Assembly (NCBI GenBank): GCA_030601425.1
Contig: JAUVTR010000001.1
Span: forward strand, 1 to 52,980
Source: Desulfobacterales bacterium
Lineage (GTDB): Bacteria; Desulfobacterota; Desulfobacteria; Desulfobacterales; JAHEIW01
Direction: 5' to 3'
DNA length: 52,980 nucleotides
The position numbers and the translations under genes were made by a program. Positions 4,955 through 51,467 of this stretch are shown here, in pieces (position 1 is the stretch's first letter; each line of letters opens with the position of its first letter). The notes beneath the pieces were generated by a model. That model had not been told where the DNA came from. It ran no database searches and worked only from the letters and a program-made list of their open reading frames with translations.

Positions 4955-5003
4955 TCCTGGGTTCTGGCATCTGGCTGCTGGTCTCTGGCTGCTTGTTCCC
5001 CGT
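4955..5003. repeat. In-phase heptad tract, NNCTGGC dialect
   Basis: tcctggg ttctggc atctggc tgctggt ctctggc tgcttgt tccccgt: 7 consecutive heptads upstream of the 83-aa ORF. Confidence 0.75.
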
Positions 5004-5068
5004 GTTGACCTCAATGTTGTTTTCAATTATGAAACACAGCATATTCAATTACAAGGAGCAGCTGAAAA

Positions 5069-5320
5069 ATGACCATTCACTCTCATAATTTTGTGGAAAC
5101 TTACAAAGGCCTGGTGGGTTTTGGTGCAGATCGAAATACAGATGAAAACACGGTCATATACTATCTTCAGAAATTTTCGGATGACCGGCTGATGAAAACG
5201 ATCATAAAACGCCTGCCAGACGAGGAGTTATCAGAGATATTTTTATTGATGACCCGGCTTCTAAAAAACCATCTCACCAGTTCCGAGTACCACCAAATCT
5301 TCTTAAAAGAGGAACCTTAA
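5069..5320 (+). CDS. Hypothetical 83-aa protein
   Basis: ORF with AAGGAG 9 nt upstream of the ATG. I recognise no family. It is flanked on both sides by heptad-periodic non-coding tracts. Confidence 0.5.
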   Translation: MTIHSHNFVETYKGLVGFGADRNTDENTVIYYLQKFSDDRLMKTIIKRLPDEELSEIFLLMTRLLKNHLTSSEYHQIFLKEEP

Positions 5321-5324
5321 GCTC

Positions 5325-5506
5325 GTTACTGGCTTCTCGTCACTGGCAACTACTTGATACAAAAAGCCAGCTGCCCATTCGTTAAAAGCTAGTGGCAGAC
5401 GGCCCGCCGTAAGAAGAAAGCAGTAAGCTGCAAGGAATCAGAAACCAGTATCCTGGAGCTAAAAGCCAAAGACAAGGTGCCAGAAGCAAGTGACAAACAC
5501 AGGAGG
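5325..5506. repeat. Spacer built of 26 in-phase heptads (CACTGGC / GCCAGAA dialects)
   Basis: Cutting 5325-5506 into 7-mers puts G at position 1 in 16 of 26 units (gttactg gcttctc gtcactg gcaacta ... gccagaa gcaagtg). The 3' part (5435-5503) is the complement type of 4955-5003. Confidence 0.75.
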
Positions 5507-5600
5507 GGGGACGTGCTAACTAAAAAACAGTTGGTCCGATATGCAGATGTGCTGATATGTCGGCTGTAATGAATCGGTTTTTTGCAAAGACGCGAAATTA

Positions 5601-5972
5601 TCACGCACTGATAGCGGATTTGGATGGATTATTTGCTACTTTTTTTACCGACTCCACCAAATCTAGCAGTGGAAACGGTTTGGGTAAAACGACATCGAAG
5701 CCCGAATCCTGAATAAGCCAGGGCGTCCCTGAAATGCCGATAATCGGAATGGAATTTTTATGAGAATTGCGAATATGTCGAACCACGCCTTTGCCATCAA
5801 GCCCCGGCATGCGAAGATCGGTAATCACGATATCAAAGCTGCCATCGTCAAACTTTTGAATACCTTCATAACCATCGGCTGCTAATTCAACTTGATGTCC
5901 GAATTTTGTTAAGGCTTCTTCGATCACGCGCAAGATACCTTTTTCATCATCGATAACTAAAATGGTGCACAT
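5601..5972 (-). CDS. Single-domain response regulator (CheY-like receiver)
   Basis: 123 aa. ILVIDDE..DIVITDLRMPGLDG..LPKPF receiver signature with no output domain. Confidence 0.85.
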   Translation of the reverse strand: MCTILVIDDEKGILRVIEEALTKFGHQVELAADGYEGIQKFDDGSFDIVITDLRMPGLDGKGVVRHIRNSHKNSIPIIGISGTPWLIQDSGFDVVLPKPFPLLDLVESVKKVANNPSKSAISA

Positions 5973-6513
5973 GATTCCTTCCCCAAAAGCAGTTTGATGT
6001 TTAAAATCTTACTGACTTTCTATTTATCATACTCAAGAACAGGACGCCTGTCAACAATATGTTGTGGACATTATTTTTCAAAACACAATATATGGACATT
6101 TCGAGGAAATTAAACGGCTTTGGCGGTGCAGATCCAATCGAAATCCACTGGCAGCAGGCCATCGTCAATACACTTATATTTGGATAAAGTACTGCAGATG
6201 TCAAGCCGGATTATAACGATTTTTAATTTCCGGATGGAGCAGGTTATCAACAACATGCATCTTGTTGAAATTTAAATATAAAAAATAAGCTTGGTCGATT
6301 AACTGATTAAATTCTATTACTTATGGAATGTTTCATTTTTCTTAAGCATTTTAGTGAGATCCCAAGTTATCAACACGTTATGAACAATTTGGGTTGAGAA
6401 ACCAAACTAGTAAAATCGCTCTTTTTTAATTGTTTTCTAACGGAATGGAAATGATGGGCCAAATGGCGTAAGAAACTATATTCGAAGCCTAGCGGGCAGG
6501 AAACCTTAAAAAA

Positions 6514-6539
6514 AGCGCCGAAGCAACGCTTCCGGCGCT
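6514..6539 (-). terminator. Intrinsic terminator downstream of the miaB-nuclease operon
   Basis: AGCGCCGAAGC / GCTTCCGGCGCT stem (11 bp with one bulge). On the minus strand it is followed by TTTTTTT (complement of the A-run at 6507-6513). Lies about 100 nt past the stop at 6648. Confidence 0.7.
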
Positions 6540-6647
6540 ATTTTATAAACATATTTGAGCTGAAATGATAAGCACAACCCAATCGTAATTGTCAAATGCA
6601 AAAGTAAGGTGAAGGTTTAAATTCGTGATTTGTACCCTTGATGAAGC

Positions 6648-8607: not shown

Positions 8608-8841
8608 TTAATCGTGACCTGGCGGCCCGGGCATTACAGGCTCAATCAGGATGTCCTTTTTTAAATACTGCAAAATTTCCGCTACCTGCTTTTGGCAGCC
8701 CGGTGCGATGTGAAACGAAATAACCCCCCGGATCGGGTCTTCTGTTTTAATGGTGGCAATACCATCATAGGCTTCCAAAATAAATTTTAGAAAAGCAATT
8801 TCTCTGCGATCCACCCGGTAATACTTTTTTAGTGATTTCAA
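8608..8841 (-). CDS. DUF4911-like small protein
   Basis: 77 aa. The REIAFLKFILEAYDGIA pattern is characteristic of DUF4911. Lies upstream of and co-oriented with miaB. Confidence 0.55.
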   Translation of the reverse strand: MKSLKKYYRVDRREIAFLKFILEAYDGIATIKTEDPIRGVISFHIAPGCQKQVAEILQYLKKDILIEPVMPGPPGHD

Positions 8842-8871
8842 AATTTCTTTACTGTCACAAAACCATTTAGT

Positions 8872-9046
8872 AGGTTTCAGGTTTCGGGTGTCAGGCGTCA
8901 GGTAAACAGACGACAGAGGTCAGAGGACAGAGGACAGAAAACAGAAGATACAGTTGTCAGAATTGACAGTGCTGAAACCTGAACACTGAAACCTGACACC
9001 TGAAACCTCCTTATTCCTGACACCTGACACCCGAAACCTAAAACCT
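8872..9046. repeat. Long heptad-periodic hairpin element A (GGTTTCA/GGTGTCA plus GACAGAG dialects)
   Basis: 8875-8951 holds 11 in-phase heptads ending in CAG(G). 8970-9046 holds about 11 heptads of the complementary CTGA type. The outer arms 8872-8902 and 9016-9046 pair at 29 of 31 positions. Confidence 0.9.
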
Positions 9047-9266
9047 AATTTTTGCTGAAACCTGAAGCCATAATAAAGGCATATTAAACTTTCGTTCCGG
9101 CAAGCGTTTCGGAGACGAGCAAAACCGCTATCAGGCGAGAGATGATGGTATTAAAAGACGGTCTATTGAGTATAACCACATCTCCATTATTTGCAATAAA
9201 AAACACCTTGTGCATTTGATCAATTTTAGGTTGTCCAATCTGCGGTTATACGGTATAGGGCCGTCA

Positions 9267-10985
9267 ATGGAAAAAAAATGGCAAATACTGCAACCGGACG
9301 CCGAGGCCGTAAACGAATTGAGTGCAAGATTGCATTGCCATCCGATCACTGCGACTATTCTTCTCAACCGAAACTTGACATCCGCGCAGGAAGCCTCAAG
9401 CTTTGTCGCCGCCTCTTTGAGCAAGGTTCGCTCACCATTCAGCCTAAAAGATATGAACGGTGCGGTTCAGCGCATCTATCGTGCAATTATAGATCATGAA
9501 AAGATCTTAATCTTTGGTGATTACGATGTTGACGGCATCACCGCCACGGCTGTACTTTTGGATTTTTTCCGGGAAATCGGAGCCCGGGTATCCGCCTATA
9601 TCCCCCATCGAATAAAAGAAGGATACAGCCTGCAGACGCATCATATCCATGACTACGCTCTGCCCAACCGGATCCAATTGATTATCACCGCGGACTGCGG
9701 TTCCGGCAGCCATGATGCCATAATCGCAGCCCTCAATTCGGGGATCGATGTGATTATTACCGATCATCACACGATCTCTGAAAAAATACCTCCCGCTGCG
9801 GCCGTACTGAATCCAAAGCGTCATGATTGTCAGGCCGGCATGCAAATGCTGGCCGGTGTTGGCGTGGCCTTTTCACTCTTGATCGGTTTGCGGAAATATC
9901 TGCGAGATCTTCATTTTTGGAAAGACCGGCCGGAACCGAATCTCAAAAATCTTTGCGATCTCGTCGCTCTGGGTACGATCGGTGATAGGGTTCCCCTTGT
10001 TGAAGAAAATCGTATTTTTTCAAAAGTCGGACTTGCCCTCATAAATTCTTCAACAAGGCCCGGGTTGAGCGCCTTGCGCAAGGTGGCCGGTATTGCGAAT
10101 GAACCGACAGATGCCGAAGATATTGCTTTCAGACTGGCCCCACGATTAAACGCCGCAGGTCGCATGGATCATGCCTCGGTAGCGTTGAAGTTGCTGACAA
10201 CTGGAGACAACACCACCGCCCGGCAGCAGGCCGAATACCTGAATAGCTTGAACAGCCGACGTCAAGAACAGGAACGTTTGATCCTCGATGCTATTTTTTC
10301 AGACTTTCAGCGCTACCCGGAACGCCTCAAAAAAAGGACCCTTGTATGCTGGCATCCCGAGTGGCATCAGGGCGTAATAGGAATTGTCGCATCCCGTATC
10401 ATGGAAAGGTATTTCCGACCGGCTGTCGTGATTGCAATTGATGGCGAAATTGGCAAGGGGTCGGCCAGAAGCATCCCCGGACTGGATTTATTCAACGCTT
10501 TGCAGGACTGTCAACATTGCCTCGAAAATTTTGGCGGTCATTCGATGGCGGCCGGATTGACCATCAGAGCCAAAAAATTAGTAGAATTCCAACACGCTTT
10601 TGAAGAAGCTGTTACCCAAATGACCCGACCCGATGATTGGATACCCAAAATGACCATCGACGCCGAAATCAATTTCTCCGATATATCGGACAACCTGATC
10701 AATGAGATCGAGACCTTAAGCCCCTTTGGTAACGGAAACCCGGAACCCGTATTTATGGCTCGCGACGTTAAAGTGCTATCTTCAAAAATTGTGGGGAAAA
10801 ATCATCGCAAAATGGTGCTGGCTCAGGACGCCGGCCGTGTGCAAAATACGTTTCAAGCGATCCGGTTCAATGCCGACGGTCGAATGCAAACCGAGACAGC
10901 GTTCACCCAAATCGCTTTTCGGCTGCGGTGGAATCGCTGGAACGCAAATAAAATTTCTCAGCTGATTATTGAGGATGCCCGCTAG
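9267..10985 (+). CDS. recJ: Single-stranded-DNA-specific exonuclease RecJ
   Basis: DHH motifs (GDYDVDGITA, ITADCG, ITDHH) and DHHA1 (GGHSMAAG). I chose the ATG at 9267 (MEKKWQIL), because the ORF-track start at 9210 adds an unconserved leader. Confidence 0.92.
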   Translation: MEKKWQILQPDAEAVNELSARLHCHPITATILLNRNLTSAQEASSFVAASLSKVRSPFSLKDMNGAVQRIYRAIIDHEKILIFGDYDVDGITATAVLLDFFREIGARVSAYIPHRIKEGYSLQTHHIHDYALPNRIQLIITADCGSGSHDAIIAALNSGIDVIITDHHTISEKIPPAAAVLNPKRHDCQAGMQMLAGVGVAFSLLIGLRKYLRDLHFWKDRPEPNLKNLCDLVALGTIGDRVPLVEENRIFSKVGLALINSSTRPGLSALRKVAGIANEPTDAEDIAFRLAPRLNAAGRMDHASVALKLLTTGDNTTARQQAEYLNSLNSRRQEQERLILDAIFSDFQRYPERLKKRTLVCWHPEWHQGVIGIVASRIMERYFRPAVVIAIDGEIGKGSARSIPGLDLFNALQDCQHCLENFGGHSMAAGLTIRAKKLVEFQHAFEEAVTQMTRPDDWIPKMTIDAEINFSDISDNLINEIETLSPFGNGNPEPVFMARDVKVLSSKIVGKNHRKMVLAQDAGRVQNTFQAIRFNADGRMQTETAFTQIAFRLRWNRWNANKISQLIIEDAR

Positions 10986-11150
10986 TGTCAGGGTTCAGAG
11001 TTCAGAGGACAGAAGTCAGAGGTCAGAAAACAGAGGTCAGATGACAGAAGACAGATGGTAAGAACTGTAGGATGGAGCACCTTTTCTGACGTCTGTATCT
11101 TCTGTTTTCTGACATCTGTACTCTGTCCTCTGACACCTGACACCTAAAAC
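10985..11150. repeat. Heptad-periodic hairpin element B (GTCAGAG/GACAGAA dialect)
   Basis: Ten exact-phase heptads at 10987-11056. The reverse-complement arm is 11086-11150, about 80% complementary with one heptad indel. The loop is 11057-11085. It starts on the last base of the recJ stop codon. Confidence 0.9.
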
Positions 11151-11297
11151 GCTGGCACCTGTTTCCTGAAATTGCTGTCATCCAGCAAAAAACTTTAGGT
11201 ATATGTCGGGCGAATATTTTGCTTGCAAACAGGCGTGTTACCCATTATGATGCCACCACAATTCCGGTACTAATCATTTCAACCAGAAGGTGAAACC

Positions 11298-14253: not shown

Positions 14254-14370
14254 AGTGCCTAAAATGAACTAAAATGAGCTAAAGTGCCTAAAGTTAAGGT
14301 GTCGCTTCGCTCCATCTTTTTAAATAAAAAAGACAGAATTCCTTAACTTTAGGCATTTTAGATCACTTTT
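14254..14370. repeat. Hairpin element C (GCCTAAAAT dialect) with a conserved core
   Basis: Arms are 14254-14299 and 14341-14370, whose inner 15 bp (tgcctaaagttaagg / ccttaactttaggca) are perfect. The core 14300-14340 is gtcgcttcgctccatctttttaaataaaaaagacagaatt. Confidence 0.85.
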
Positions 14371-14403
14371 AATCCCGCCTTATGGCGCTATCATTGGCGG
14401 GAC

Positions 14404-17910: not shown

Positions 17911-18131
17911 AAATCACTCGTTTCAAAATTGAATTTAGCTTGAAAAATTAAAGTTTAAATAAAGATCAATCATTTGTGAGGGCAAATGGGCAAGACTTCT
18001 ATTTATACCATAAATGAGATTTTTTTTCGATGCTCGATTTTCTGCTAAAAGACGAAGGCGCATAAACGGATTAAAAGCTAGCATGCGAGCATTTTAAGAA
18101 GCCCATAACGAAACTATTGCGCATTAGATAA

Positions 18132-18209
18132 CGAGAACGAGGACGACGACGAGTACGAAGCGAGAAGGAACGTTGTCTAACCTCGTATTCGTCGTCGTCC
18201 TCGTCCTCG
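18132..18209. repeat. Hairpin element D (GAGGACGAC dialect)
   Basis: 18132-18160 pairs with 18181-18209 at 26 of 29 positions, with a 20-nt loop. Lies 25 nt downstream of the guaB stop. Confidence 0.85.
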
Positions 18210-18233
18210 AGAATGGCATTTTTGAGATGGGTT

Positions 18234-23270: not shown

Positions 23271-23417
23271 CTGGTGTCAGGTGTCAGGTGTCAGGTTTCA
23301 GGCCACTGGCTACTAGTTACTGCTACCCGTCACTGGTTTCCGGCAGCCGCAGAGGGCTGCCCTTCTCCGGTTTTCATCTATCTTCTGACTTCTGACTTCT
23401 GTCTTCTGATTTCTGAT
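23271..23417. repeat. Element E: the whole cmk-hisC spacer as 21 in-phase heptads
   Basis: ctggtgt caggtgt caggtgt caggttt caggcca ctggcta ctagtta ctgctac ccgtcac ... ttctgac ttctgac ttctgtc ttctgat ttctgat. The left GGTGTCA arm is 23273-23302 and the right TTCTGAC arm is 23381-23416. A central GGCAGCC/GGCTGCC hairpin lies at 23342-23361. Confidence 0.9.
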
Positions 23418-24512: not shown

Positions 24513-24576
24513 TTTAGGTATAAAGCGTTAATATTACAAGTTAATACATTTTTGAGATTAAAAATATAATTTAAAA

Positions 24577-24662
24577 AATTACCACGAAATCACGAAAACA
24601 TAAAAGCACGAAATATTCTTTCTTTTTCGTGTTTTCGTCATTTCGCGCTTTCGTGGTAAATT
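24577..24662. repeat. Hairpin element F (CACGAAA dialect)
   Basis: aattaccacgaaatcacgaaaacataaaagcacgaaa (24577-24613) versus tttcgtgttttcgtcatttcgcgctttcgtggtaaatt (24625-24662). About 30 of 38 positions are complementary, with an 11-nt loop. Confidence 0.88.
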
Positions 24663-34688: not shown

Positions 34689-36413
34689 ATGAAAGCATTG
34701 ATCCTGGCAGCGGGCCTGGGAACCCGGTTGCGGCCCTACACGGACCACACCCCCAAACCGCTTTTCCCCATCCTGGGCAGACCGCTCCTGGATATTATGA
34801 TTACCAAACTGATCGATGCCGGTTGCAAAGCGGTTATTATCAATACGCACCACCTGCACGACCAAATCGAATCGTTTATCGCGCACCAAGCTTACCCCAT
34901 CCCGATCCAAACACGCTATGAACCGAATATTCTTGGGACCGGCGGTGCCATCAGAAATGTTAAAGATTTCTGGAACGATCAACCCTTTATGGTGATTAAC
35001 GCAGATATTTTCACGACAATCGATCTCAAAAGAGTTTACGATTTCCACTGTCGGCATTCGCATCCGGCAACTCTCGTGCTTGCGGACGACCCCGATTTTA
35101 ACAGTATCGTTTGCGACAGCGATGGTTTTGTTACCGAATTTCATCACCGTTCAGACACGACTGATCGATCCTCGATCGCTGCGCTCACCTTTACAGGCAT
35201 CCAGGTATTGGATCCGGAAATCTTAAATTTTATACCTGTTGAGGCGCCATCCAGCAGTATTGATGCCTATACCCGTATGATTGCGGAAGGAAAAAAAATA
35301 AGAGCCTATCTCTCCAAAAAAACTTACTGGAAAGATATCGGTACCGCTGAACGCTACAAATTAGCGGTATTTGAAGTCACAGCACCCGAGGTATTTAAGC
35401 AAGTTTTCCCCGACTTGCAAATCGGCCCTATTTGCCGTGAACCGCTTAAAGGCGATGGGTCCGACCGGCAATGGTCGCGATTAAAAATGGGTACAGCGTC
35501 AATGATAGTCGTTGATCATGGCATCAAGAAAGCCGCTCGGGTAGATGCGGCCGATGCCTTTGTAAACATTGGCCGCCATCTGTTCGACCGGGGCGTGCCG
35601 GTTCCGCAAATCTATGATGGAGATACCTTCGCCGGATATGTGTTTTTAGAGGATCTTGGAAATCTCGATTTGCAAACCATTGTGCAGCAAACCGACAATT
35701 TTGAAAAGATCATCAGCCTGTATCAATCCGTGATTCATCTGCTGACAGAATTTTCGGCATCCGGTGCGGAACAATTCAACGTGGCCTGGACCTATCAGAC
35801 GCCCCGCTATAACAAAAAACTGATTCTGAAAAACGAATGCCGCTATTTTGTAGAAGCGTTTTTAAATACATACCTCGGGTTAGAAGTCATATATGATGAC
35901 TTTAAAAAGGAATTTGAATATCTGGCTGAAAATGCCCTGCAACATGCCTTAGAGGGCCTGATGCACCGGGATTTTCAGTCTCGTAATATTATGGCTAAAA
36001 ATGATGAGTTTTATTTTATCGATTTTCAGGGAAGCCGCCTGGGACCCATCCAATACGACCTGGCATCGTTACTGATTGATCCCTATGTCCAGTTACCGCA
36101 AGACATCCAAACTCAGCTGCTCGGATACTGCGTGGAAAAACTGGAAGCGGATATGAACCTGAATGCCGATAATTTTCGCCGCTGCTATCGGTACTGCCGT
36201 TTGACGCGCAACCTGCAGATTCTGGGGGCATTTGGGCATTTGAGCCGTGTCAAAGCAAAACCCCATTTTGAACAATATATTCCGCCAGCCGTCCGAACGC
36301 TTAGAAACAATCTTAAAAAACACGAACAAAAAACACTGCCAATGCTAAACGCCCTTATGGATAAGATCATCAAACATAATCAAATTCAAAACCCGGTTCG
36401 AAAGGCGACTTGA
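34689..36413 (+). CDS. Fused MurNAc-1-P uridylyltransferase-like (MurU) and MurNAc/GlcNAc kinase-like (AmgK) protein
   Basis: 574 aa. N-terminal LAAGLGTRLRP sugar-nucleotidyltransferase fold, and a C-terminal APH-type kinase with HRDFQSRNIM and IDFQG motifs as in AmgK. Confidence 0.75.
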   Translation: MKALILAAGLGTRLRPYTDHTPKPLFPILGRPLLDIMITKLIDAGCKAVIINTHHLHDQIESFIAHQAYPIPIQTRYEPNILGTGGAIRNVKDFWNDQPFMVINADIFTTIDLKRVYDFHCRHSHPATLVLADDPDFNSIVCDSDGFVTEFHHRSDTTDRSSIAALTFTGIQVLDPEILNFIPVEAPSSSIDAYTRMIAEGKKIRAYLSKKTYWKDIGTAERYKLAVFEVTAPEVFKQVFPDLQIGPICREPLKGDGSDRQWSRLKMGTASMIVVDHGIKKAARVDAADAFVNIGRHLFDRGVPVPQIYDGDTFAGYVFLEDLGNLDLQTIVQQTDNFEKIISLYQSVIHLLTEFSASGAEQFNVAWTYQTPRYNKKLILKNECRYFVEAFLNTYLGLEVIYDDFKKEFEYLAENALQHALEGLMHRDFQSRNIMAKNDEFYFIDFQGSRLGPIQYDLASLLIDPYVQLPQDIQTQLLGYCVEKLEADMNLNADNFRRCYRYCRLTRNLQILGAFGHLSRVKAKPHFEQYIPPAVRTLRNNLKKHEQKTLPMLNALMDKIIKHNQIQNPVRKAT

Positions 36414-36445
36414 ATATTCAATAGTCAATCGAAAATATTCAATCC
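36413..36445. repeat. Solo ATTCAAT arm, a near-identical copy of the right arm of element G
   Basis: aatattcaatagtcaatcgaaaatattcaatcc matches 25400-25432 at 31 of 33 positions. It fills the gap between the murU-amgK stop and the dapB RBS. Confidence 0.9.
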
Positions 36446-37307: not shown

Positions 37308-37439
37308 AAATAGTTTAAAAGCCCCATAGTTTGTTCGATGGCAAGGCGCAATTCGCCTCAAAAGCGGAGCGTACACGTAAGTACGTGAGCATTTTGATGT
37401 GAATTGTAACACAGCCAGCGGGCAAAATATGGGCCTTTT
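37308..37439. repeat. Structured convergent spacer L
   Basis: aaatagtttaaaa (37308-37320) is identical to 41287-41299 in element M. The outer stem aaaagccccata (37317-37328) / tatgggcctttt (37428-37439) pairs at 11 of 12 positions. Inner small hairpins are ggcgcaattcgcc and cgtacacgtaagtacg. Confidence 0.6.
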
Positions 37440-40065
37440 AGCTGTTTTCGATGACTTTGTAGGCCTTTTGTAAGGCCTGATCCAGCTTTTCAGGTTTTGT
37501 ACCGCCGGCCTGGGCCATATCCGGTCGTCCCCCGCCGCTGCCTCCCACTGTTGAGGCGATTTGTTTAATGACATTGCCGGCATGAAAACGGTCGGTCAGA
37601 TCTTTGGTCACCACCACGATTAGAAATGCTTTGGGACCGTTGGCACTGCCCAGCACAACGATACCCGATTTTAGCTTTTCTTTGAGCCTGTCAGCTAAAT
37701 CTCTGAGCGCGGCGGGATTATTCACCGACACCTTTTGAATCAGAACCTTTGTATTGTTGACTGATTTGATGGCGTCGCCGCCGACTTCGGCCGAATCGGA
37801 TGCGATTTTAGCCTTAAGGCGCTCAACCTCTTTTTCAAGCGTTTTCAAATCACTTAGTATCTTTGCGACTTTTGAAGTTACGGCATCCGGTTTGTCTTTG
37901 ACCAGATGCGCGGTATCCTCCAAAAGCCTGGATGTCTTCTGGACATACTGAAGTGCCCCTTCTCCGGTTAAAGCCTCGATTCGCCTGACGCCGGAGGCAA
38001 TGCTGGACTCGCTGACAATTTTAAAAAGTCCGATGTCGCCGGTTTTAGCGGTATGGGTACCCCCGCAAAACTCTTTGCTGAAATCGGATAAGGAAACCAC
38101 CCGAACATGATCGCCGTACTTCTCTTCAAAAAGCGCCGTGGCGCCTGATTTAAAAGCCGCCTCGGCCTCCATCTCTTCAGTATGAGTGGCAACGTTCTCA
38201 CGGATTCGCCGATTGACACGGGTTTCGATTTCAGCCAGGGTTTCGGGGTCGACCGGGGAAAAATGCGTAAAATCAAAGCGCAGTCGATCCGGTGCGACCA
38301 GCGAGCCGGCCTGTTTGACATGTTCGCCAAGCACCTCGCGCAATACAGCATGCAGAATGTGCGTGGCCGTATGATTCAAGGCAGTTGCCTCGCGTTTGGC
38401 CCCATCCACATGAAGCGTGACCTTTTTTCCTTTTTTTACCTTTCCGGAAATTATATGGCCTTTGTGGATGATCAGCCCGGTGGGGTCTTTGATCGTGTCC
38501 ACAACTTCCATTTCAAAGTTTTTATGGGTGATTTCCCCGGCATCGCCGACCTGGCCACCGGCTTCTGCATAAAACGGCGTTTCTTCAGTAACCAGCTCAA
38601 TGGTTTGGCCCGCATTGGCTTCAGAAATTTCAGAACCGTCCGCAACGATAAGTAAAACCTTTGATTCGGAGGTCAGCATCTGGTAACCGCGAAACTCCGG
38701 TTTGAATCCTTTAGCCGATAAATTTTTATAAGCCTCGCTGATGCTTGCAAAGGTGGTCACCGACCGGGATCTGGCACGCTGTTTCTCCATGGCGCTGTCA
38801 AATCCTTCCATATCGAGGCTCATGTTTTCATCCCGGACCACATCCCGGACGATATCCGCCGGAAAGCCATAAGTGTCATAGAGTTTGAAAATGATATCAC
38901 CGGGTACCTGGGTTGCACCCTTGGCCTTGATCTCAGAGAGCGTATCGTTTAGCAGCTTCAGACCCGTGTCCAGTGTTTCCAGGAATCGGACCTCTTCATT
39001 TTCAATGACGTTGGTGATAAAGGCAGACGCCTCGGCGAGTTCGGGATAGGCGGGCTGCATGATATCAAAGACCACCCTTGCGGTTTTGTGCAGAAACGGC
39101 CGATTCAAGCCGATATTGCGCCCGTAGCGAATTGCGCGGCGCATAATGCGGCGCAACACATATCCGCGGCCTTCATTGGAAGGCATAATACCGTCACCGA
39201 TCAAAAATGCGGCCGCCCGGCTGTGATCGGCAATGACTTTCATGGCCACATCGGTAGGTCCGGATTCACCGAATCGTTTCTCAGCCAGTTTTTCAGTCTC
39301 CTGGATGATCGGCTGGATAAGGTCAGTATCATAATTGGTCGGAACGTCCTGAATGAGCGAAACGATGCGTTCAAGCCCCATTCCGGTATCAATGCTGGGC
39401 TTGGGCAGCGGCGTCATTTTCCCTGAGGCATCCCGGTTAAATTGCATAAAGACCAGATTCCAGATTTCAAGATAGCGATCACACTCGCAACCCACAGTAC
39501 AATCCGGCTTACCACATCCATATTGTTCGCCGCGGTCGATAAGAATTTCAGAGCAGGGACCACAGGGCCCGGTATCTCCCATGGACCAGAAGTTATCTTC
39601 TTCTCCAAAGCGCATGACCCGCTCCTCCGGCAGACCGATGTTTTTGCGCCACAACTCATAGGCCTCGTCGTCGTCAAGATAAATGGAACCGTACAATTTA
39701 TCTTGCGGCAGCCCATAGCCGTTGGTTAACAAATCCCAGGCAAATTCGATGGCACCTTCTTTAAAATAATCTCCAAAAGAAAAGTTGCCCAGCATTTCAA
39801 AAAAGGTATGATGTCGAGCGGTATAGCCAACATTTTCCAGGTCATTGTGCTTGCCCCCGGCGCGCACGCATTTCTGAGACGTTGTTGCGCGCACATAATC
39901 TCTTTTGTCTTCACCTAAAAAGACGCGTTTAAACTGCACCATGCCCGCATTGATAAACAGCAAGGTGGGATCATCCTGGGGGACCAGCGAAGAACTGCGA
40001 ACAATCCGGTGATGGTGTTTTTCAAAATAGTTTAAAAATTGCGTACGAGTCTCATTGCCTGTCAT
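37438..40065 (-). CDS. alaS: Alanine--tRNA ligase
   Basis: About 875 aa. Class II motifs, the HxxxH/CxxxH editing site, and a C-terminal DHHA1 with GGGG. The ATG at 40065 follows GGAG; the track start at 40077 is a TTG. Confidence 0.96.
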   Translation of the reverse strand: MTGNETRTQFLNYFEKHHHRIVRSSSLVPQDDPTLLFINAGMVQFKRVFLGEDKRDYVRATTSQKCVRAGGKHNDLENVGYTARHHTFFEMLGNFSFGDYFKEGAIEFAWDLLTNGYGLPQDKLYGSIYLDDDEAYELWRKNIGLPEERVMRFGEEDNFWSMGDTGPCGPCSEILIDRGEQYGCGKPDCTVGCECDRYLEIWNLVFMQFNRDASGKMTPLPKPSIDTGMGLERIVSLIQDVPTNYDTDLIQPIIQETEKLAEKRFGESGPTDVAMKVIADHSRAAAFLIGDGIMPSNEGRGYVLRRIMRRAIRYGRNIGLNRPFLHKTARVVFDIMQPAYPELAEASAFITNVIENEEVRFLETLDTGLKLLNDTLSEIKAKGATQVPGDIIFKLYDTYGFPADIVRDVVRDENMSLDMEGFDSAMEKQRARSRSVTTFASISEAYKNLSAKGFKPEFRGYQMLTSESKVLLIVADGSEISEANAGQTIELVTEETPFYAEAGGQVGDAGEITHKNFEMEVVDTIKDPTGLIIHKGHIISGKVKKGKKVTLHVDGAKREATALNHTATHILHAVLREVLGEHVKQAGSLVAPDRLRFDFTHFSPVDPETLAEIETRVNRRIRENVATHTEEMEAEAAFKSGATALFEEKYGDHVRVVSLSDFSKEFCGGTHTAKTGDIGLFKIVSESSIASGVRRIEALTGEGALQYVQKTSRLLEDTAHLVKDKPDAVTSKVAKILSDLKTLEKEVERLKAKIASDSAEVGGDAIKSVNNTKVLIQKVSVNNPAALRDLADRLKEKLKSGIVVLGSANGPKAFLIVVVTKDLTDRFHAGNVIKQIASTVGGSGGGRPDMAQAGGTKPEKLDQALQKAYKVIENS

Positions 40066-41256: not shown

Positions 41257-41350
41257 TAGTTAAATGGTCAATTAGTTGATTCGTTAAATAGTTTAAAATG
41301 GATTGAATCCTTTGACTAATTGACAATTCGACGAATTAACTAATTGACTA
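41257..41350. repeat. Hairpin element M (GTCAATTAG/TTAACGA dialect)
   Basis: Centred on ggattgaatcc (41301-41311). 41275-41324 is the reverse complement of 51346-51396, about 90% identical over roughly 50 nt. Confidence 0.88.
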
Positions 41351-41416
41351 AAACTGCGAGCCGCTGAACCCAGGACCCTGATCCCACAGGATAAATACAA
41401 CGACAATAATTGATTG

Positions 41417-42019: not shown

Positions 42020-43423
42020 TTATTTATGAGCCGGGGCAGCCGGCAGCACTTCGATCTTGGATAAGATATTGTTTTTTATCCAGGCCGCATCCCACCATTC
42101 GATCGGATTGACAAAAGTGTTGTGAATAAGGATGCCAAAATGAAGATGGTCACCGCCCGCAAGACCGGTGCTGCCGGTACGGCCTATTGTCTCTCCCTTG
42201 GACACCCGCTGCCCTTGGCTGACATCGCTACGATTTAAGTGAGCGTACATGCTGAACAGGCCGAATCCGTGATCAATGAGAACGGTTTTCCCATAAATAC
42301 CTAAAGGCTCACTGAAAATGACGACTCCGCTGTTGGCAGCCGGTACCGGCGCGTGCGTCACCGATGCCAGATCCAGGCCGAGGTGAACCTGGCGGTCAAT
42401 TACCTTACCTTTATAATAATACACACGATGGTCGGCAAATCCCGCCTGATTCGCCGACCCGGGCATTCGTAAAAACACGCCTTTCCACAGTTTGACTGTC
42501 GCTGTCTTTTTGGCCAGCTCAGTTATTTGCTGATAATTGGCTTTCCGTAATTCCCGGTTGATCTTTATAAATTTATCCACCAAAGAACCGGTCGATTCCG
42601 ACGTGATAGTGTTCTCAAATTCGGGCATTTTCCAGTTTAAAAACCGATCCGAAATCCGGATGTCATCATTTCTAAAAACTTTTTTACGAATGTGATGCCT
42701 GACCCCTGCTTTGGCAGTATTTCCGGCTTCATCAACTGCTTTTATCGAAATCCGGGTTCCGGGACCCTGTTGATAACCGAGCCCGATAAATGCCATCCGA
42801 ATCTGAGGGTTTTTATAATAGCCGGCATAACCGGGGAAAAAATTGTCACCGACCTGAATCCCGCTAAGTCGACAATCTTCTGAAGTGCTGTAGATGACAA
42901 GCCCGGCGCCGCCCTGAGTCAAATTGTGTGCCCGGCTAATCACTTCAATTTCCGGCGGGTGCGTATCAATAATCAGGCTCTTTTCAACATAGGTTTGATT
43001 ACCCTTCCACCACCCGCGCCATGAATAATCCCAGACCGCCAGGCGTAATATGGCTTTTCCGTCGGAGAATTCATGTTTTTCAGGCTCAAATGTGATGTTC
43101 AGGGTTTTGGTTTTAATTTTTCCACCGCTGAATAACCCGGCTGAAGGAAGTTCATCATCGGAGAGCACCACTTCTTTTCCATTTTTGATCATCGCGACCC
43201 AAATTTTTCGCAGCCCGCTCTTTTTATCCTCGAGCGAGATTGAAAACTCATGGAACTTTCCGATAAAGGGCGATGTGAGTTCAAGAACAATTTCGGGTTT
43301 TTGGCCTTCGAACCGAATCAATAAGAGCCAAAGAACAGGCAACAATAAGATGGCACCGATAATTCCCACACGCCATCGTTTTCTATTTTTATTTTTTTCT
43401 TTCAACGGGTTACGCTCCACCAA
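42020..43423 (-). CDS. M23 family metallopeptidase with an N-terminal membrane anchor
   Basis: 467 aa. C-terminal HLGLD..., GRTGSTGLAGGDHLHF and LytM-type HxH motifs, with one TM helix near the N-terminus. Confidence 0.85.
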   Translation of the reverse strand: MVERNPLKEKNKNRKRWRVGIIGAILLLPVLWLLLIRFEGQKPEIVLELTSPFIGKFHEFSISLEDKKSGLRKIWVAMIKNGKEVVLSDDELPSAGLFSGGKIKTKTLNITFEPEKHEFSDGKAILRLAVWDYSWRGWWKGNQTYVEKSLIIDTHPPEIEVISRAHNLTQGGAGLVIYSTSEDCRLSGIQVGDNFFPGYAGYYKNPQIRMAFIGLGYQQGPGTRISIKAVDEAGNTAKAGVRHHIRKKVFRNDDIRISDRFLNWKMPEFENTITSESTGSLVDKFIKINRELRKANYQQITELAKKTATVKLWKGVFLRMPGSANQAGFADHRVYYYKGKVIDRQVHLGLDLASVTHAPVPAANSGVVIFSEPLGIYGKTVLIDHGFGLFSMYAHLNRSDVSQGQRVSKGETIGRTGSTGLAGGDHLHFGILIHNTFVNPIEWWDAAWIKNNILSKIEVLPAAPAHK

Positions 43424-43571
43424 GAGGAAGTAGTCAAATTCGTTTTAATAACAGCTCGGCCTGGGAGAATCAAGGTCTCTTTTCGTTTCTTGACTTTTAA
43501 CGGTGTGCAGGATAAATATTCTTTTCCGAAATTTCAGACCTCTGGCATTCCCAACCGACAGCGAAATTTGC

Positions 43572-43664
43572 ATTTATAATCCACAGATTACGCAGAAATA
43601 AATATTCAATAATTTCTTTATAATTTTTTAAATCTGTGTAAATCTGCGAAATCTGCGGATAAAT
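43572..43664. repeat. Hairpin element O (CGCAGAT dialect)
   Basis: atttataatccacagattacgcagaaat (43572-43599) versus aatctgtgtaaatctgcgaaatctgcggataaat (43631-43664), with an AT-rich 31-nt loop. Confidence 0.8.
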
Positions 43665-43734
43665 AATCTGATTGATGAGCTGGCGGCGCAGCGCGGAATT
43701 GTGTCGGGTCGTTTGTCTATAAAGCAGCATATTC

Positions 43735-44316
43735 ATGGCCACTGAATATAAAAAACCCAAAAAGATAAAAATATTTCTGCTGGCGACGATATTAATTACA
43801 CTCGGCGGCGTTATCGGGGTTTACATTGGTTTTCGGCAGGATTCAAAAATTTCAGAATCAGTTCCGGAATCTGTCGAGCCCGATGCAACCTTGTCGGTCG
43901 GCAAGATCCAACAAACGGCTACCCGTAAAGGAAAGAAGGAATGGAGCCTTGAGGCCAACTCGGCCTATTATATCCAAAAGATGAATCAAATGGTTCTTAA
44001 AGACCTGACGGTCACATTTTTTCTCAAAGATAATAGTGAGGTTACCCTGGTAGCCGATCAAGGCATATTGAAAACCGATTCAAACGATATTGAAGTATCC
44101 GGCAATGTCATGGTAAATAACAACGAATACCGATTGTTAACCGAAAAACTGAGTTACGCTCATAATCGGCGCGTACTGTATTCGAGTGTTCCGGTAACTA
44201 TCTCCGGAACTTCAACGCAGGTAGTAGCTGATTCGATATCATTTGATCTCAATTCAAAAAAACTTACGCTGGAAGGAAGCGTTGAAGCCACTATTGCTAA
44301 AAATTTTAAACTTTAG
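43735..44316 (+). CDS. lptC: LPS export protein LptC
   Basis: 193 aa. N-terminal anchor plus an OstA-like beta-jellyroll. Position immediately upstream of lptA-lptB-rpoN. Confidence 0.75.
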   Translation: MATEYKKPKKIKIFLLATILITLGGVIGVYIGFRQDSKISESVPESVEPDATLSVGKIQQTATRKGKKEWSLEANSAYYIQKMNQMVLKDLTVTFFLKDNSEVTLVADQGILKTDSNDIEVSGNVMVNNNEYRLLTEKLSYAHNRRVLYSSVPVTISGTSTQVVADSISFDLNSKKLTLEGSVEATIAKNFKL

Positions 44317-49350: not shown

Positions 49351-49510
49351 TGAGCTAAAGCTGAAAAGCGGAAATAATTCATTTTATTTGATACTCACGC
49401 AAAGCCGCTAAGCTCGCAAAGAATAATGATTTAAACAATTAAAAAACTCTTGGCGTCTTTGCGCCTTTGCGTGAGGCCTAAAGTATTCGTTCATTTTAGG
49501 CACTTTTTTT
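49351..49510. repeat. Nested element P: outer GCCTAAAAT-type arms, inner CGCAAAG hairpin
   Basis: The inner 49394-49422 pairs with 49447-49475 at about 24 of 29 positions. The outer right arm gttcattttaggcact (49489-49504) is the exact reverse complement of 14254-14269. A T-run at 49504-49510 follows. Confidence 0.85.
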
Positions 49511-49521
49511 AAAGGTGATTT

Positions 49522-49935
49522 ATGATCGGTATCGTTATCGTTACGCATAGTCAATTAGGTGATGCATTAATTGAAGCTGCTGAATTTATAATCGGCAAAC
49601 GCCCTGAAGCACTGGTTTCGGTTTCCATTGATTTGAATGAGAGCGCCGACATGCTGCGTAGAAAAATTGCTGACGGCATAAAAAAGGTCAAATCAAAAGA
49701 TGGTGTGCTCATCTTAACAGACATGTTTGGTGGGACACCTTCCAACTTGAGCTATTCGTTTCTTGAAGAAGGACAAATTGAGGTACTCTCCGGGGTAAAT
49801 CTTCCAATTTTGATCCAGGCAGCAAACACGCGAGCGAAAGTGGACCTCACCAAATTGGCCGTCAAATTGGAAGCATTTGGTAAAAAGAGTATCTCATTGG
49901 CAAGCGGCTTACTAAAAGGAAATAAACGGAGCTAG
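49522..49935 (+). CDS. PTS EIIA component, mannose/fructose family
   Basis: 137 aa. IGIVIVTHS (active-site His near the N-terminus) and the TDMFGGTPSN motif. Confidence 0.8.
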   Translation: MIGIVIVTHSQLGDALIEAAEFIIGKRPEALVSVSIDLNESADMLRRKIADGIKKVKSKDGVLILTDMFGGTPSNLSYSFLEEGQIEVLSGVNLPILIQAANTRAKVDLTKLAVKLEAFGKKSISLASGLLKGNKRS

Positions 49936-49965
49936 AGGGTTGAGGGAAAAGTATAGGGAGAGACT

Positions 49966-50970
49966 ATGACGGTTAAACTTGGCATTAATGGTTTTGGAAG
50001 GATCGGGCGCCTCGTCTTTAGAGCGGCCTTAAAAAATCCTGAGGTTGAAGTCGTTGCCATCAACGACCTTACAAACGCGGCCACAATGGCCCATCTGCTT
50101 AAATATGATTCAGTACATGGCACATTGGATGTCGATGTTAGCGCTCAAGATGACCGGCTGGAAGTGGATGGCAAAGCCGTTGCCATCCGATCTATTAAGG
50201 AGCCTGAGAATCTCGGGTGGAGCGAACTCGGCGTAGACGTTACCGCGGAATGCACCGGGTTGTTTCGTGATCGCGAAAGTGCCTCCAGGCATCTGGCTGC
50301 CGGAGCACGTAAAGTCATCATATCGGCTCCAGCCAGCGATCCCGATATTACAATTGTCATGGGAGTCAACTCGAATCAATATGATCCGCGACAGCATCAT
50401 ATTATTTCAAATGCCTCGTGTACAACCAATTGTCTGGCGCCGGTAGCCAAAGTACTTTTGGAAAATTTCGGCTTGAAAAACGGATTGATGACCACCATCC
50501 ATGCCTATACCGGTGATCAACGACTGTTGGACTTTCCTCACAAAGATTTGCGCCGAGCCAGAGCAGCAGCGCTTTCAATGGTACCCACCACCACGGGTGC
50601 GGCCAAAGCCGTGTCGCTGGTGCTGCCGGAATTGTCCGGCAAACTTAACGGACTTGCCGTCCGTGTCCCCATCCCCAATGTTTCGATGGTGGATTTTGTG
50701 GCCACCTTGGAAAAAACCGACATTACCGTCTCAGAAGTCAACGCAGCCTTGAAAAATGCTTCGGAAGAATCCCTGGCCGGCATTCTGGGATACAGCGAAG
50801 CGCCTCTGGTTTCGATCGACTTTAACGGATCCACACTGTCCTCAATCGTGGATGCCCCCACCACCCATGTTATCGATAATATGGTAAAGGTGCTTGCCTG
50901 GTATGATAACGAAGCCGGCTATTCACATCGAATGGTGGACCTGGCGGTCATGGTGGGAGCGGAGCTATAG
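49966..50970 (+). CDS. gap: Type I glyceraldehyde-3-phosphate dehydrogenase
   Basis: 334 aa. INGFGRIGR and the SNASCTTNCLAP catalytic motif. Confidence 0.96.
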   Translation: MTVKLGINGFGRIGRLVFRAALKNPEVEVVAINDLTNAATMAHLLKYDSVHGTLDVDVSAQDDRLEVDGKAVAIRSIKEPENLGWSELGVDVTAECTGLFRDRESASRHLAAGARKVIISAPASDPDITIVMGVNSNQYDPRQHHIISNASCTTNCLAPVAKVLLENFGLKNGLMTTIHAYTGDQRLLDFPHKDLRRARAAALSMVPTTTGAAKAVSLVLPELSGKLNGLAVRVPIPNVSMVDFVATLEKTDITVSEVNAALKNASEESLAGILGYSEAPLVSIDFNGSTLSSIVDAPTTHVIDNMVKVLAWYDNEAGYSHRMVDLAVMVGAEL

Positions 50971-50984
50971 CTCTGGTTTCAGAG

Positions 50985-51013
50985 TCCGCAGATTTCGCAG
51001 ATTTCCGCAGATA
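50985..51013. repeat. Solo CGCAGAT arm
   Basis: In tccgcagatttcgcagatttccgcagata, the first 20 nt are identical to the reverse complement of 43641-43660 in element O. It starts 15 nt after the gap stop. Confidence 0.85.
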
Positions 51014-51016
51014 ATA

Positions 51017-51302
51017 AAGCTGTTAAGCTAGTACCTGAATTTTGCACGAGTCGGAGGCTTTCATGTGCAAGGCACTTAAGGGCGAAGCCATAGTGAACTA
51101 TTGCGAGCCCTTAATAACGCAGCAGATGGAAGCCTCCGGCTCGCCCGCAGGGTGAAAAGTAATGAGATAAAATGATTTTCATCCATTATACCTGATAGGT
51201 ATTTTGGTTTACTTCGCTGGTTTGCTTAACCTGTTGTCATTAAAAATAATCTTAACTTCTCATTAATTTTCATGAAAGATCCAGGTAGTAAGCTGTTGAG
51301 CT
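51017..51302. repeat. MITE-like 286-bp block with imperfect terminal repeats
   Basis: aagctgttaagct-agtacctg (51017-51037) versus caggtagt-aagctgttgagct (51282-51302). I see no target-site duplication. Confidence 0.45.
51047..51143 (+). ncRNA. Candidate structured RNA (unknown family)
   Basis: An 18-bp closing helix 51047-51064 / 51126-51143 has 16 Watson-Crick pairs plus 2 T-G positions that pair only in the plus sense. Inner hairpins are gtgc-aag-gcac and ttaagggc(51076-83)/gcccttaa(51107-14). Confidence 0.45.
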
Positions 51303-51339
51303 GATATGCCGATAAGATGTTGGCACCTGGTTAAATGTT

Positions 51340-51467
51340 CAAATAGTCAATTAGTCAGAGGATTCAATCCGTTTTAAAACTATTTAACGATTCGACGATT
51401 TAACCAATTAACTTATCATTTTACTAATTGACTATTCGATTAATTGACCATTTAACGAATTAACGAT
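51340..51467. repeat. Hairpin element N (GTCAATTAG/TTAACGA dialect), the partner copy of M
   Basis: Centred on ggattcaatcc (51360-51370). It equals the reverse complement of element M with an internal insertion of about 44 nt. It ends 27 nt before the tpiA ATG. Confidence 0.88.

Follow-up and report, generated by a model that had tools for sequence, protein, structure and literature searches.

What are the long hairpins with periodic arms that occupy the intergenic spacers of a Desulfobacterales chromosome, and do they act at the level of RNA or of DNA? The question is raised by a 52,980-nucleotide stretch (contig JAUVTR010000001.1 of assembly GCA_030601425.1), which was analysed over its full length of 53 kb and is called the window in the following. 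From the letters of this window alone, an original prediction had described 20 loci that share one architecture, a block of tandem short units, a loop or core, and a block of the reverse-complement units. We find that the periodic-arm hairpin architecture, its restriction to spacers and its preference for heptamers are real and far beyond chance. We conclude that the elements are a new, very dense and modular form of a repeat that has been noticed before in a few bacteria and never explained, and that their mechanism is only partly resolved. Elements are named here by the letter e and the coordinate of the predicted locus, and loci fetched for comparison carry L numbers.

Tandem Repeats Finder (TRF) detects arrays with periods of 6-10 nt at nearly all predicted coordinates, and an inverted-repeat search pairs these arrays into arms of 22-51 nt that are 70-95% complementary. 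The full description, a long imperfect hairpin whose arms are tandem units of 6-10 nt, mostly 7, applies to about 14 of the 20 listed loci. The remainder depart from it in several ways: the loci 4955 and 50985 consist of direct arrays alone, 36413 of a single arm, 5325 and 51340 are weak, the hairpin at 37308 (as also the one at 51047-51143) has no periodic arms, and the arrays at 23271 pair poorly. All listed elements are intergenic and measure about 35-300 bp. An element is present in 15-17 of the 26 spacers longer than 100 bp, in agreement with the predicted share of about two thirds; the elements make up roughly one quarter of the spacer DNA of the window, at a density of roughly one per 3 kb. 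Folding energies lie 4-9 standard deviations (SD) below dinucleotide shuffles on at least one strand at 12 loci (8872, 10985, 14254, 18132, 24577, 26258, 27751, 28821, 30329, 41257, 49351 and, on the minus strand, 43572).

Autocorrelation at lags 7, 14 and 21 is elevated in spacers alone (0.297 vs 0.244 in coding sequence). A strict detector reports 15 periodic blocks in the window, 10 of which have a reverse-complement partner within 300 nt. The same detector yields no partnered block in 20 shuffles and two in 72 unrelated bacterial genomes (1,278 kb around recA). Of 34 blocks from Desulfobacterales loci sampled without bias, 23 have period 7; in other bacteria, 90 of 108 blocks have period 6, which equals two codons. 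The longest in-phase run within the window comprises about 10 units, not the 26 given as the upper bound in the prediction. In TRF, a super-period of 21 nt (or 14/28) often outscores 7 nt (window 10995-11055, 8906-8945, 11082-11139 and 23377-23416; L002 7832-7874 and 9016-9104), which suggests higher-order duplication of 2-4 units per event; 21 nt corresponds to two helical turns. The worry that the loci are assembly artefacts is ruled out by independent assemblies that carry the elements. The 99.84%-identical L081 assembly shows no difference within elements 41257 or 43572, and L203 and L205, which come from different samples, hold an identical nested element.

The unit dialects of the original prediction are, judged by sequence comparison, families common to related metagenome-assembled genomes (MAGs) and metagenome contigs. 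Within the window, TCAG/CAGA-type units are common to 8872, 10985, 23271 and 30329, and GCCTAAA-type units to 14254, 28821 and 49477. Elements 41257 and 51340 share 45 nt with 93% identity, and 43572 and 50985 have a unit in common. The elements 14254 and 25286 combine unlike arms with an identical loop sequence, of which 28821 contains a diverged copy plus an insert. A pattern scan of metagenome contigs, on which the counts for this core family rest, found at least 120 stretches with the loop-core pattern, and in almost all of them the core is flanked by a tandem array and then an inverted array. At least five arm types occur around the core (ATTGAAG/ATTCAAT, GTGCCTAAA, GAATGACGA, CGAATATCGAATGTCGAAGG, GATTGATGATTG, GGGTCAAG). 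Likeness between core copies is limited to about -60 to +150 around the core, with unique flanks. The left end is sharp (CCYAACCCGG...) and the right ends are modular and variable; no target-site duplication was seen at either. The core also occurs on IMG/VR contigs classed as viral (L211 12025-12105; L212 6576-6658 and 10762-10844), where it is flanked by a further arm type of period 8, GGGTCAAG/GGATTCGAG.

Four elements of the window have copies elsewhere with whole-element identities of 86-97%. Element e25286 is 96-97% identical to its copies in L099 and L170 over about 122 nt, e14254 is 92% identical to the copy in L084 over 109 nt, e18132 is 91% identical to the copy in L175 over 82 nt, and e24577 is 86% identical to the copy in L130 over 79 nt. 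The check for non-orthology covered e25286/L099, with flanks compared by eye, and e18132/L175, with one flanking open reading frame (ORF); this ORF (L175:501-1985) is not GuaB. Loci fetched solely for the core also hold copies of e18132, of e24577 and of the e8872 arms, and the TCAGG arms of e8872 recur in L002 and 20 metagenome loci. Such copies elsewhere exclude an independent origin in place for the e18132, e24577 and e8872-arm families. The predicted dispersal of copies, as opposed to independent slippage, is thus supported by e25286, e18132 and e24577. Three relatives, L001, L003 and L004, lack elements despite similar GC content and spacer lengths.

As predicted, no transposase, REP-associated tyrosine transposase (RAYT; REP, repetitive extragenic palindromic sequence), reverse transcriptase or cas gene is present among the 39 window ORFs scanned; a few other ORFs were named by synteny or left unscanned. 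Near the core copies (at least 120 listed), no enrichment of a mobilising gene was found among 513 ORFs, with the ten most recurrent protein families inspected. The recurrent families are ordinary paralogues (ABC transporters, sigma-54 activators, permeases, MttB), and a cis-linked transposase was rejected on this ground. The lack of a mobilising gene among the scanned ORFs and near the copies fits mobilisation in trans.

The loop module of the core family is conserved as TCGCTTCGCTCC...GAATTCC. By manual reading, its right half, GACAGA-ATTCC, complements the left half, GGAAT-CGCTTCGC-TCTGTC, exactly except that eight bases are missing. The core may hence be modelled as a bulge of 8 nt, CGCTTCGC, on one side of a stem that is continuous elsewhere and that, in the same manual reading, ends in a cap formed by a small CYRTC/GAYAG stem with an A/T-rich loop; the inner pairs given by RNAalifold for the same alignment differ from this model. 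Some copies (L163) retain the full palindrome of the core, and L113, like window element 25286, contains the upstream module GGAGCGAAGC complementary to the core. The arms of the subfamilies are wholly unlike yet always mutually complementary, with double compensatory changes between subfamilies in 9 of 10 arm base pairs of a 25-sequence alignment. Nested in arms or loops are a mini-hairpin, TCCGCCGGAGGCGGA, and an insert with its own tandem repeats, CGTTCGACCC...GAGGCTCTCGACGG, the latter also at 28890-28930 of the window. In Nostoc, Elhai and colleagues reportedly described in 2008 dispersed repeats of very small size that lie nested among tandem heptamers; these nested mini-hairpins would resemble them.

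Arms of the CAGA type pair about equally in each in-phase register (complementarity 0.64-0.75) and are degenerate arrays able to pair in many registers; elements outside this type have one clearly best register. Symmetric arm expansion was rejected, as left and right unit numbers vary independently among copies. A micro-ORF in the loop core (MSLRS...RIP) was rejected because loop and T-run lengths differ by 1-2 nt among copies, which breaks the reading frame. A sigma-70 promoter in the core (TTGATG ... TAAAAT) was set aside as well, with its spacer of 20 nt and promoter scans at chance level.

Comparison between relatives reveals how the elements behave over short distances. All six lineages, namely the window and five relatives at 80-89% RecJ identity, carry a hairpin directly behind the recJ stop codon, and it is the sole hairpin kept across 80-100% RecJ identity. 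Its units drift among the lineages from GGTTCAG through GTGTCAG to GTCAGAG, it measures between 70 and 260 nt, and in one lineage a second element is nested in the loop. In other lineages (80-89% RecJ or 82% RecA identity), the DUF4911-recJ, manC-dnaE and recA-upstream spacers lack an element or contain one from another family; for the spacer upstream of recA, the relatives contain a different element (L002) or none. In L210 (3421-3727), which aligns with window 8842-9114 at 98.5% flank identity, the whole of e8872 is inverted and an unrelated insert of ~120 nt is present. The 5' leader of the DUF4911 gene is replaced in L210 as well. An apparent e10985 variant at the end of L210 was set aside, since it lies <30 nt from the contig end and may be an assembly break. 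Overall, gain, loss, replacement, inversion and nested insertion of elements are observed between relatives. This turnover fits the proposal that the elements are a non-autonomous mobile family.

The reading we favour, to which we give about an even chance, is that the elements are non-autonomous foldback repeats acting at the DNA level, similar to REP/REPIN (REP doublets forming hairpins) or to miniature inverted-repeat transposable elements (MITEs), with arms formed by heptamer slippage and hairpin-templated copying. The elements have dispersed to unrelated spacers, nest within each other, are gained, lost, replaced and inverted, and keep complementary arms without an RNA signature. Replication slippage that favours heptamers would generate the periodic arms and alter their length; slippage has been put forward as the explanation of a heptamer bias (PMC4692102). 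Hairpin-templated copying by intrastrand template switching, together with recombination between arms, would keep the arms alike, rather than selection for RNA pairing. Dispersal would depend on a trans-acting function encoded elsewhere in the genome that possibly recognises the bulged hairpin. At some sites the transcribed hairpins probably have secondary or co-opted effects, on the stability of 3' ends, on termination or on translation downstream; the recJ 3' hairpin and e24577 may well be examples of such co-option as RNA 3'-end structures.

Several points weigh against this reading. The host genome is known here from 53 kb only. Transposition is postulated while no mobilising enzyme, target-site duplication or clean pair of filled and empty sites was found, and hairpin-templated homogenisation is likewise a postulate. 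The orthologous element of L084 and L160 is better conserved than its flanking coding DNA (74% flank identity), and elements 41257 and 43572 are invariant between the 99.84%-identical strains. The conservation between L084 and L160 and the persistence of the recJ 3' hairpin suggest purifying selection, i.e. a host function, at least at some sites.

A primary function of the RNA, as 3'-end stabilisers, unconventional terminators, RNase III sites or in intercistronic translational coupling, with the periodicity as a by-product, is the alternative to be weighed first; we regard it as doubtful. Elements inside operons and abutting stop codons must be transcribed, and many of them lie 0-5 nt past a stop codon or between cistrons (vorA/B/C, recJ, namZ-like/rnhA, hisC/cmk). 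The recJ 3' hairpin is kept in six lineages while its sequence drifts, with the sense strand folding more stably in four of the six; the stem of e24577 is followed by T-runs on both strands, and the better conservation of the L084/L160 orthologues relative to the flanking genes points in the same direction. An RNA-level role has been demonstrated for some REP sequences. For the hairpins of the short tandemly repeated repetitive (STRR) sequences, transcript stabilisation has been proposed (PMC2670836). The signature expected from such a role is missing, however. The asymmetric core shows no preferred orientation with respect to genes, with 34 same, 26 opposite, 13 convergent and 11 divergent cases among the matches listed. 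Mismatches in the arms show no excess of G·U over A·C, neither overall (G·T 46 vs A·C 49, with the 217 transversion-type mismatches dominant) nor after re-orientation to the mRNA sense in co-directional contexts (G·U 23 vs A·C 26). The sense strand folds more stably in six elements of the window and the antisense strand in five. Arm covariation is strong but was rejected as proof of an RNA structure, as the mismatch spectrum and the orientation tests show that it is not RNA-specific. The terminator scan stays at chance level (28 found vs 23.8 expected, 27 vs 23.7) and flags no element as a whole hairpin; its matches inside elements are only the small internal stems 23352-23375 (e23271) and 28965-28946 (diverged core of e28821). 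Most elements lack a U-tract, T-runs being confined to e24577 and one side of e14254, and a classification as intrinsic terminators was rejected accordingly. Rfam yields no match at gathering score, in a scan that also missed the tRNA-Leu found by ARAGORN, and at E <= 0.1 the sole match is a spurious miRNA precursor to the e18132 hairpin. Orthologous spacers often contain no element or an unrelated one. The originally proposed RNA-level role is thus not borne out as the primary one.

The lack of an RNA signature and the symmetry at the DNA level would also fit arrays of duplex-DNA binding sites for a nucleoid-associated or global regulator of the integration host factor (IHF)/HU type, which would organise local DNA architecture or transcription. 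Elements are often found in divergent spacers that contain promoters (8872, 28821, 43572), the super-period of 21 nt often favoured by TRF equals two helical turns, and a closely related unit, NNNCTGA, forms paired arrays in Geobacter, which belongs to a different bacterial order. We consider binding arrays improbable, as at least 10 unrelated units with periods of 6-10 nt share one architecture and even the loop core, for which no single sequence-specific protein can account. A spacing of 7 bp is moreover out of helical phase, elements are also common within operons and at gene 3' ends, and promoter-like matches are at chance level, with no element singled out. The least probable explanation is that the elements are pure by-products of mutation, produced in place by slippage and quasipalindrome correction in neutral spacers, with neither dispersal nor function. 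The documented slippage bias towards heptamers (PMC4692102), unit numbers that differ between copies and between arms, the drift of units in place at the recJ 3' site, and the equal pairing of CAGA-type arms in every register, which would promote slippage, all agree with it. The core, e18132 and e24577 families already contradict it: at least 120 unrelated contexts, in different genomes, contain whole elements that are nearly identical, with a 45-nt core free of repeats and unit variants in the same order. The same few families recur, and L001, L003 and L004, similar in GC content and spacer lengths, contain no elements. A bolder proposal, which we hold to be unlikely, is that an undescribed DNA enzyme system recognising hairpins or bulges, a trans-acting activity for mobilisation and maintenance that is RAYT-like or wholly new, builds, copies and flips the elements, with the CGCTTCGC bulge as its site. 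If true, the same process would explain the heptamer hairpins of cyanobacteria (STRR), Geobacter, Xanthomonas and large sulfur bacteria.

The individual elements illustrate this modularity, and their folding is given as z relative to shuffles. Among those with the loop core, e14254 (14254-14372) is a foldback between dnaE and manC with GCCTAAA(A/G)T-type arms (14271-14299/14341-14369) and the core TCGCTTCGCTCC at 14302-14313 (z = -5.3 and -6.9; covariance model (CM) score 92.7 bits). Foldback e25286 (25286-25430) occupies the vorB-vorC intercistronic spacer with ATTGAAN / ATTCAAT heptamer arms (25320-25356/25394-25430), the core TCGCTTCGCTCC at 25359-25370 and the upstream module GGAGCGAAGC, complementary to the core (CM score 90.3 bits). 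A solo arm at 36413-36445 is a 33-nt copy of its ATTCAAT right arm (97% over 32 nt) with neither partner nor core. The large nested foldback e28821 (28821-29112) lies in a divergent promoter region; its GCCTAAAAT arms (28852-28873/29068-29089) are 95% complementary, and its diverged loop core is on the minus strand (z = -6.0; CM score 35.6 bits). It contains an inserted module with its own 13-nt tandem repeat (28902-28927), and this insert is also found in L107, L116, L164 and L185.

Among the elements with TCAG/CAGA-type units, e8872 (8869-9066) is a composite nested foldback. Its outer arms consist of TCAGG-type heptamers (8871-8902/9016-9047, 94% complementary) and enclose a CAGAGG array (8906-8947), a small central hairpin and a CTGAAAC array (8972-9008), with z = -8 and -9.3. 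Nearly all RecJ homologues among the matches listed (at least 120) have 572 aa, so the true recJ start is probably 9267 rather than the GTG at 9210; a start at 9267 would lengthen the spacer that holds e8872. The foldback e10985 (10985-11161) begins 0 nt past the recJ stop codon with ~10 NNCAGAN units, a loop and ~9 NTCTGNN units, the inverted arms spanning 10985-11034/11101-11150 (z = -7.1). It occupies the junction where relatives (L203 9764-13111, L204 11720-14940, L205) hold two extra genes between recJ and a 140-aa gene; these encode an HDOD-domain protein and an MshE-type ATPase of type II secretion systems and are absent from the window (10986-11297). The foldback e30329 (30329-30460) takes up the namZ-like/rnhA spacer from the stop codon onwards; its arms are CAGANNN / NNNTCTG and its pairing register is not unique (z = -4.8 and -5.9). 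The composite e23271 (23271-23416) fills the hisC-cmk spacer with (GGTGTCA)x4, a CTGG-type stretch, a GGCAGCC..GGCTGCC hairpin and (CTTCTGA)x5; its two unlike unit arrays pair poorly (z = -2.8).

Further foldbacks have other units and periods. The period-6 arms of e18132 (18130-18212; AACGAG/GACGAC ... CGTCGT/CCTCGT) lie 25 nt downstream of the guaB stop codon and are 85% complementary (18132-18165/18176-18209; z = -7.9 and -8.6). Element e24577 (24576-24662), past the vorC stop codon, has period-8 arms, CACGAAAN ... NTTTCGTG, at 24576-24613/24625-24662 (z = -6.9), and the T-runs after its stem on both strands give it a terminator-like appearance. The hairpin at 26258-26364 in the vorA-vorB intercistronic spacer combines GGTTAA/GTTGAAT-type arms with a direct array of three GACTATTT units (z = -5.5) and has a weak relationship to e41257. 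Upstream of the vor operon, the foldback at 27751-27830 contains CAC(G/A)AAG-type arms of period 8-9 (z = -6.0). Element e41257 (41257-41351) is found upstream of recA with period-8 arms, GTCAATTAG/TTAAATAG ... CTAATTGAC, at 41267-41292/41323-41348 (z = -5.4), and is unchanged in L081 and L082. At the 43572 locus, a hairpin (43579-43660) with period-9 arms, CGCAGAAAT ... AAATCTGCG, is located in the divergent M23-peptidase/lptC region (z = -3.3 and -5.4) and is unchanged in L081. The stretch 49394-49505 starts with a hairpin of CGCAAAG / CTTTGCG arms (49394-49476; z = -4.3), directly followed by a small GCCTAAA-type hairpin without core (49477-49505). Upstream of tpiA, e51340 (51320-51473) is a complex GTCAATTAG/TTAACGA-type element with several alternative pairings (z = -2.5).

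Direct arrays without an inverted partner are found at 4955-4993 (about 5 NNCTGGC units, z = 0) and at 50985-51012 (three TCCGCAGATT units). The former is situated upstream of the small ORF 5069-5320; its supposed partner at 5325 lies beyond this ORF and folds weakly (z about -2). The segment 50980-51150, which includes the latter array, has z = -6.1 as a whole. A separate GC-rich, non-periodic hairpin of 97 nt at 51047-51143, between gap and tpiA, has 37-nt arms with 76% complementarity, and no copies of it were found in the loci fetched for comparison. The long hairpin at 37316-37440, between the convergent genes dapB and alaS, has non-periodic arms and belongs to a separate dispersed family with the core GCGGAGCGTACACGTWAGTACGTGAGC (z = -7.1). 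Its central core is common to L094 (33 nt, 97%), and a spacer of L204 (~9800-9870) shows a looser likeness, judged by eye and unscored. This second, non-periodic family (37316-37440; L094 ~2850-3000; L204) has the conserved centre GGCAAGGCG...AAAGCGGAGCGTACACGTWAGTACGTGAGCATT; the L094 hairpin contains additional outer arms, AACCCATCTCAAAA/TTTTGAGATGGGTT, and the family motif CATTTTTGAGATGGGTTCTA also lies 3' of e18132 at 18212-18233.

The window comes from an uncultured Desulfobacterales bacterium of marine sediment; the nearest relatives of RecA and RecJ are found in uncultured Desulfobacterales MAGs and in marine or estuarine sediment metagenome contigs, and the best RecA match in the species-representative genome collection has 82% identity. 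The window is a chromosomal segment of housekeeping genes. It encodes a hybrid histidine kinase, miaB, recJ, RNase Z, manC, dnaE, guaB, rpsA, cmk and hisC, the vor 2-oxoacid:ferredoxin oxidoreductase subunits, a NamZ-like protein, rnhA, plsB, murU/amgK-like genes, dapB and alaS, followed by recA, thpR, an M23 peptidase, lptC, lptB, rpoN, rapZ, PTS IIA, gap, tpiA, secG and tRNA-Leu; the names lptA and hpf are taken solely from Pfam labels on the syntenic contig L081. Two small ORFs inside long apparent spacers look like real genes, so that part of the apparent spacer length is coding. One is 5069-5320 (83 aa, no Pfam family), at whose syntenic position ORFs of 93 and 83 aa are called in L203 and L204, with only position compared. 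The other is 8608-8841, taken as a DUF4911 protein because its syntenic counterparts in L203, L204, L206, L208 and L210 bear that Pfam label. The long spacers 5973-6647 (675 nt) and 31121-32054 (934 nt) contain no periodic element, ORF of at least 100 aa or Rfam match; a canonical terminator-like hairpin with T-run is present at 31121-31172. At ~43400-43750 the gene orientation changes from mostly minus strand (12.8-43.4 kb) to plus strand (43.7-52.6 kb), and the cumulative GC skew has its minimum there, with no dnaA or dnaN nearby; gene-strand composition alone may account for this minimum. ARAGORN places a tRNA-Leu (GAG) at 52656-52742 that neither Rfam scan reported, so the Rfam negatives of this analysis call for some caution.

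Foldback (FB) transposons of the Drosophila type have long inverted terminal arms of short tandem repeats; the arms vary in length and enclose a central loop or an insert. These eukaryotic elements readily recombine and invert, they reach kilobase size, and in some copies a transposase is encoded. By analogy of architecture only, with no homology implied, the elements would stand nearest to them. The closest published description is that of paired "predicted global regulator binding sites" of classes 1-3 in G. metallireducens (Aklujkar et al. 2009, PMC2700814). In the sections of that paper devoted to these sites, the pairs are intergenic tandem arrays on opposite strands, 75-115 nt apart, with 8-24 pairs per class in a 4-Mb genome, one of them between proB and proA; IHF/HU binding was guessed as their function (PMC2700814). 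As described there, such pairs amount to a periodic-arm hairpin with multiple classes of different units, and class 3 consists of five tandem heptanucleotides with the consensus MTYCTGA (ATTCTGA/CTCCTGA) (PMC2700814). The window elements show the same layout of opposite-strand intergenic arrays at ~75-115 nt, and the class 3 polarity so described, 5'-(TCAGxx)n...(xxCTGA)n-3', is that of 8872, 10985, 23271 and 30329 (CTTCTGA, TCTGACA). Both strands contain runs of 4-10 NNNCTGW units at 8906-9003, 10988-11140, 23277-23416 and 30336-30458. The stretch 23382-23416 reads CTTCTGA CTTCTGA CTTCTGT CTTCTGA TTTCTGA, in which three of five units are strict MTYCTGA, two of them consecutive; strict MTYCTGA runs of at least 3 units are absent from the window. 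The units are related to MTYCTGA, with homology unproven. G. metallireducens belongs to another order, its 8-24 pairs per class compare with roughly one element per 3 kb here, and the sections mention neither a conserved loop core nor nesting, which sets their description apart.

The STRR sequences, which the original prediction named as the nearest analogue, are a described precedent and not the sole one, given G. metallireducens (PMC2700814) and Xanthomonas (PMC4692102). Both STRR and window elements are intergenic or intercistronic tandem 7-nt units in many copies that are able to form hairpins, STRR hairpins lying, for example, between hupS and hupL (PMC2670836), and the period-7 arrays of the window are found in spacers only. 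The units STRR1 CCCCAGT, STRR2 TTGGTCA and STRR3 CAACAGT have no tandem (x2) occurrence on either strand of the window. The STRR host is a (heterocystous) cyanobacterium, whereas here the closest RecA/RecJ relatives are Desulfobacterales MAGs and only 2 highly iterated palindrome (HIP1) sites are present; in contrast to STRR, the inverted-array architecture is the rule and not the exception, and periods of 6-10 nt are also present. Heptamer arrays of TAACTGA, abundant in intergenic DNA and of unexplained function, are described from Beggiatoaceae, Cyanobacteria and Bacteroidetes (MacGregor 2015, PMC4679880). In BOGUAY, the best-described genome, they form 169 direct sets and one indirect set, mostly just upstream of start codons (PMC4679880). 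They share the CTGA tetramer and a patchy phylogenetic distribution with the window elements and differ in their single unit type and almost exclusively direct arrangement; the window has no tandem TAACTGA and 5 single occurrences. Xanthomonas GGGAATC heptamers, some in inverted pairs and with array lengths that differ between close species (PMC4692102), are likewise abundant intergenic arrays of patchy distribution, but their units are G-rich and quadruplex-forming.

REPINs are long hairpins formed from two inverted units (PMC3116915). Similar to REP, BIME and REPIN sequences, which are mobilised by RAYT, the window elements are short imperfect intergenic palindromes with hundreds of copies in both orientations, lack target-site duplications, occur within operons and after stop codons, and are non-autonomous. 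REP arms, unlike those of the window elements, are not internally periodic, a GTAG-type conserved head was not recognised here, and no RAYT (Y1 HUH transposase) was found in the 39 window ORFs or in the ten commonest families near the core copies listed. Assignment to MITEs was rejected: inverted arms are present, but there is no target-site duplication and no parent insertion sequence among the families near the core copies listed. A CRISPR array was rejected as well, because the units of 6-10 nt are contiguous without spacers and no cas gene is present in the 39 scanned ORFs. Membership in integron attC, STRR or TAACTGA repeats was also rejected, as their defining features are absent. In the searchable literature, the unit and core sequences return only chance primer matches.

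Bacterial heptamer repeats in intergenic DNA have been on record since 1990 without an explanation. In the window they are very dense and combine inverted arrays, a loop module and nesting into one coherent architecture, and the literature searched gives no earlier description of them for this lineage. The comparative material exposes their behaviour, with shared families, turnover and inversion at the strain level, drift of units in place and complementary arms without an RNA-type signature. This offers a testable framework of DNA-level foldback elements, in which the conserved bulged core provides a handle for finding the machinery. The elements break metagenome assemblies and confound the prediction of promoters, terminators and small RNAs in Desulfobacterota, and they could act as strain markers.

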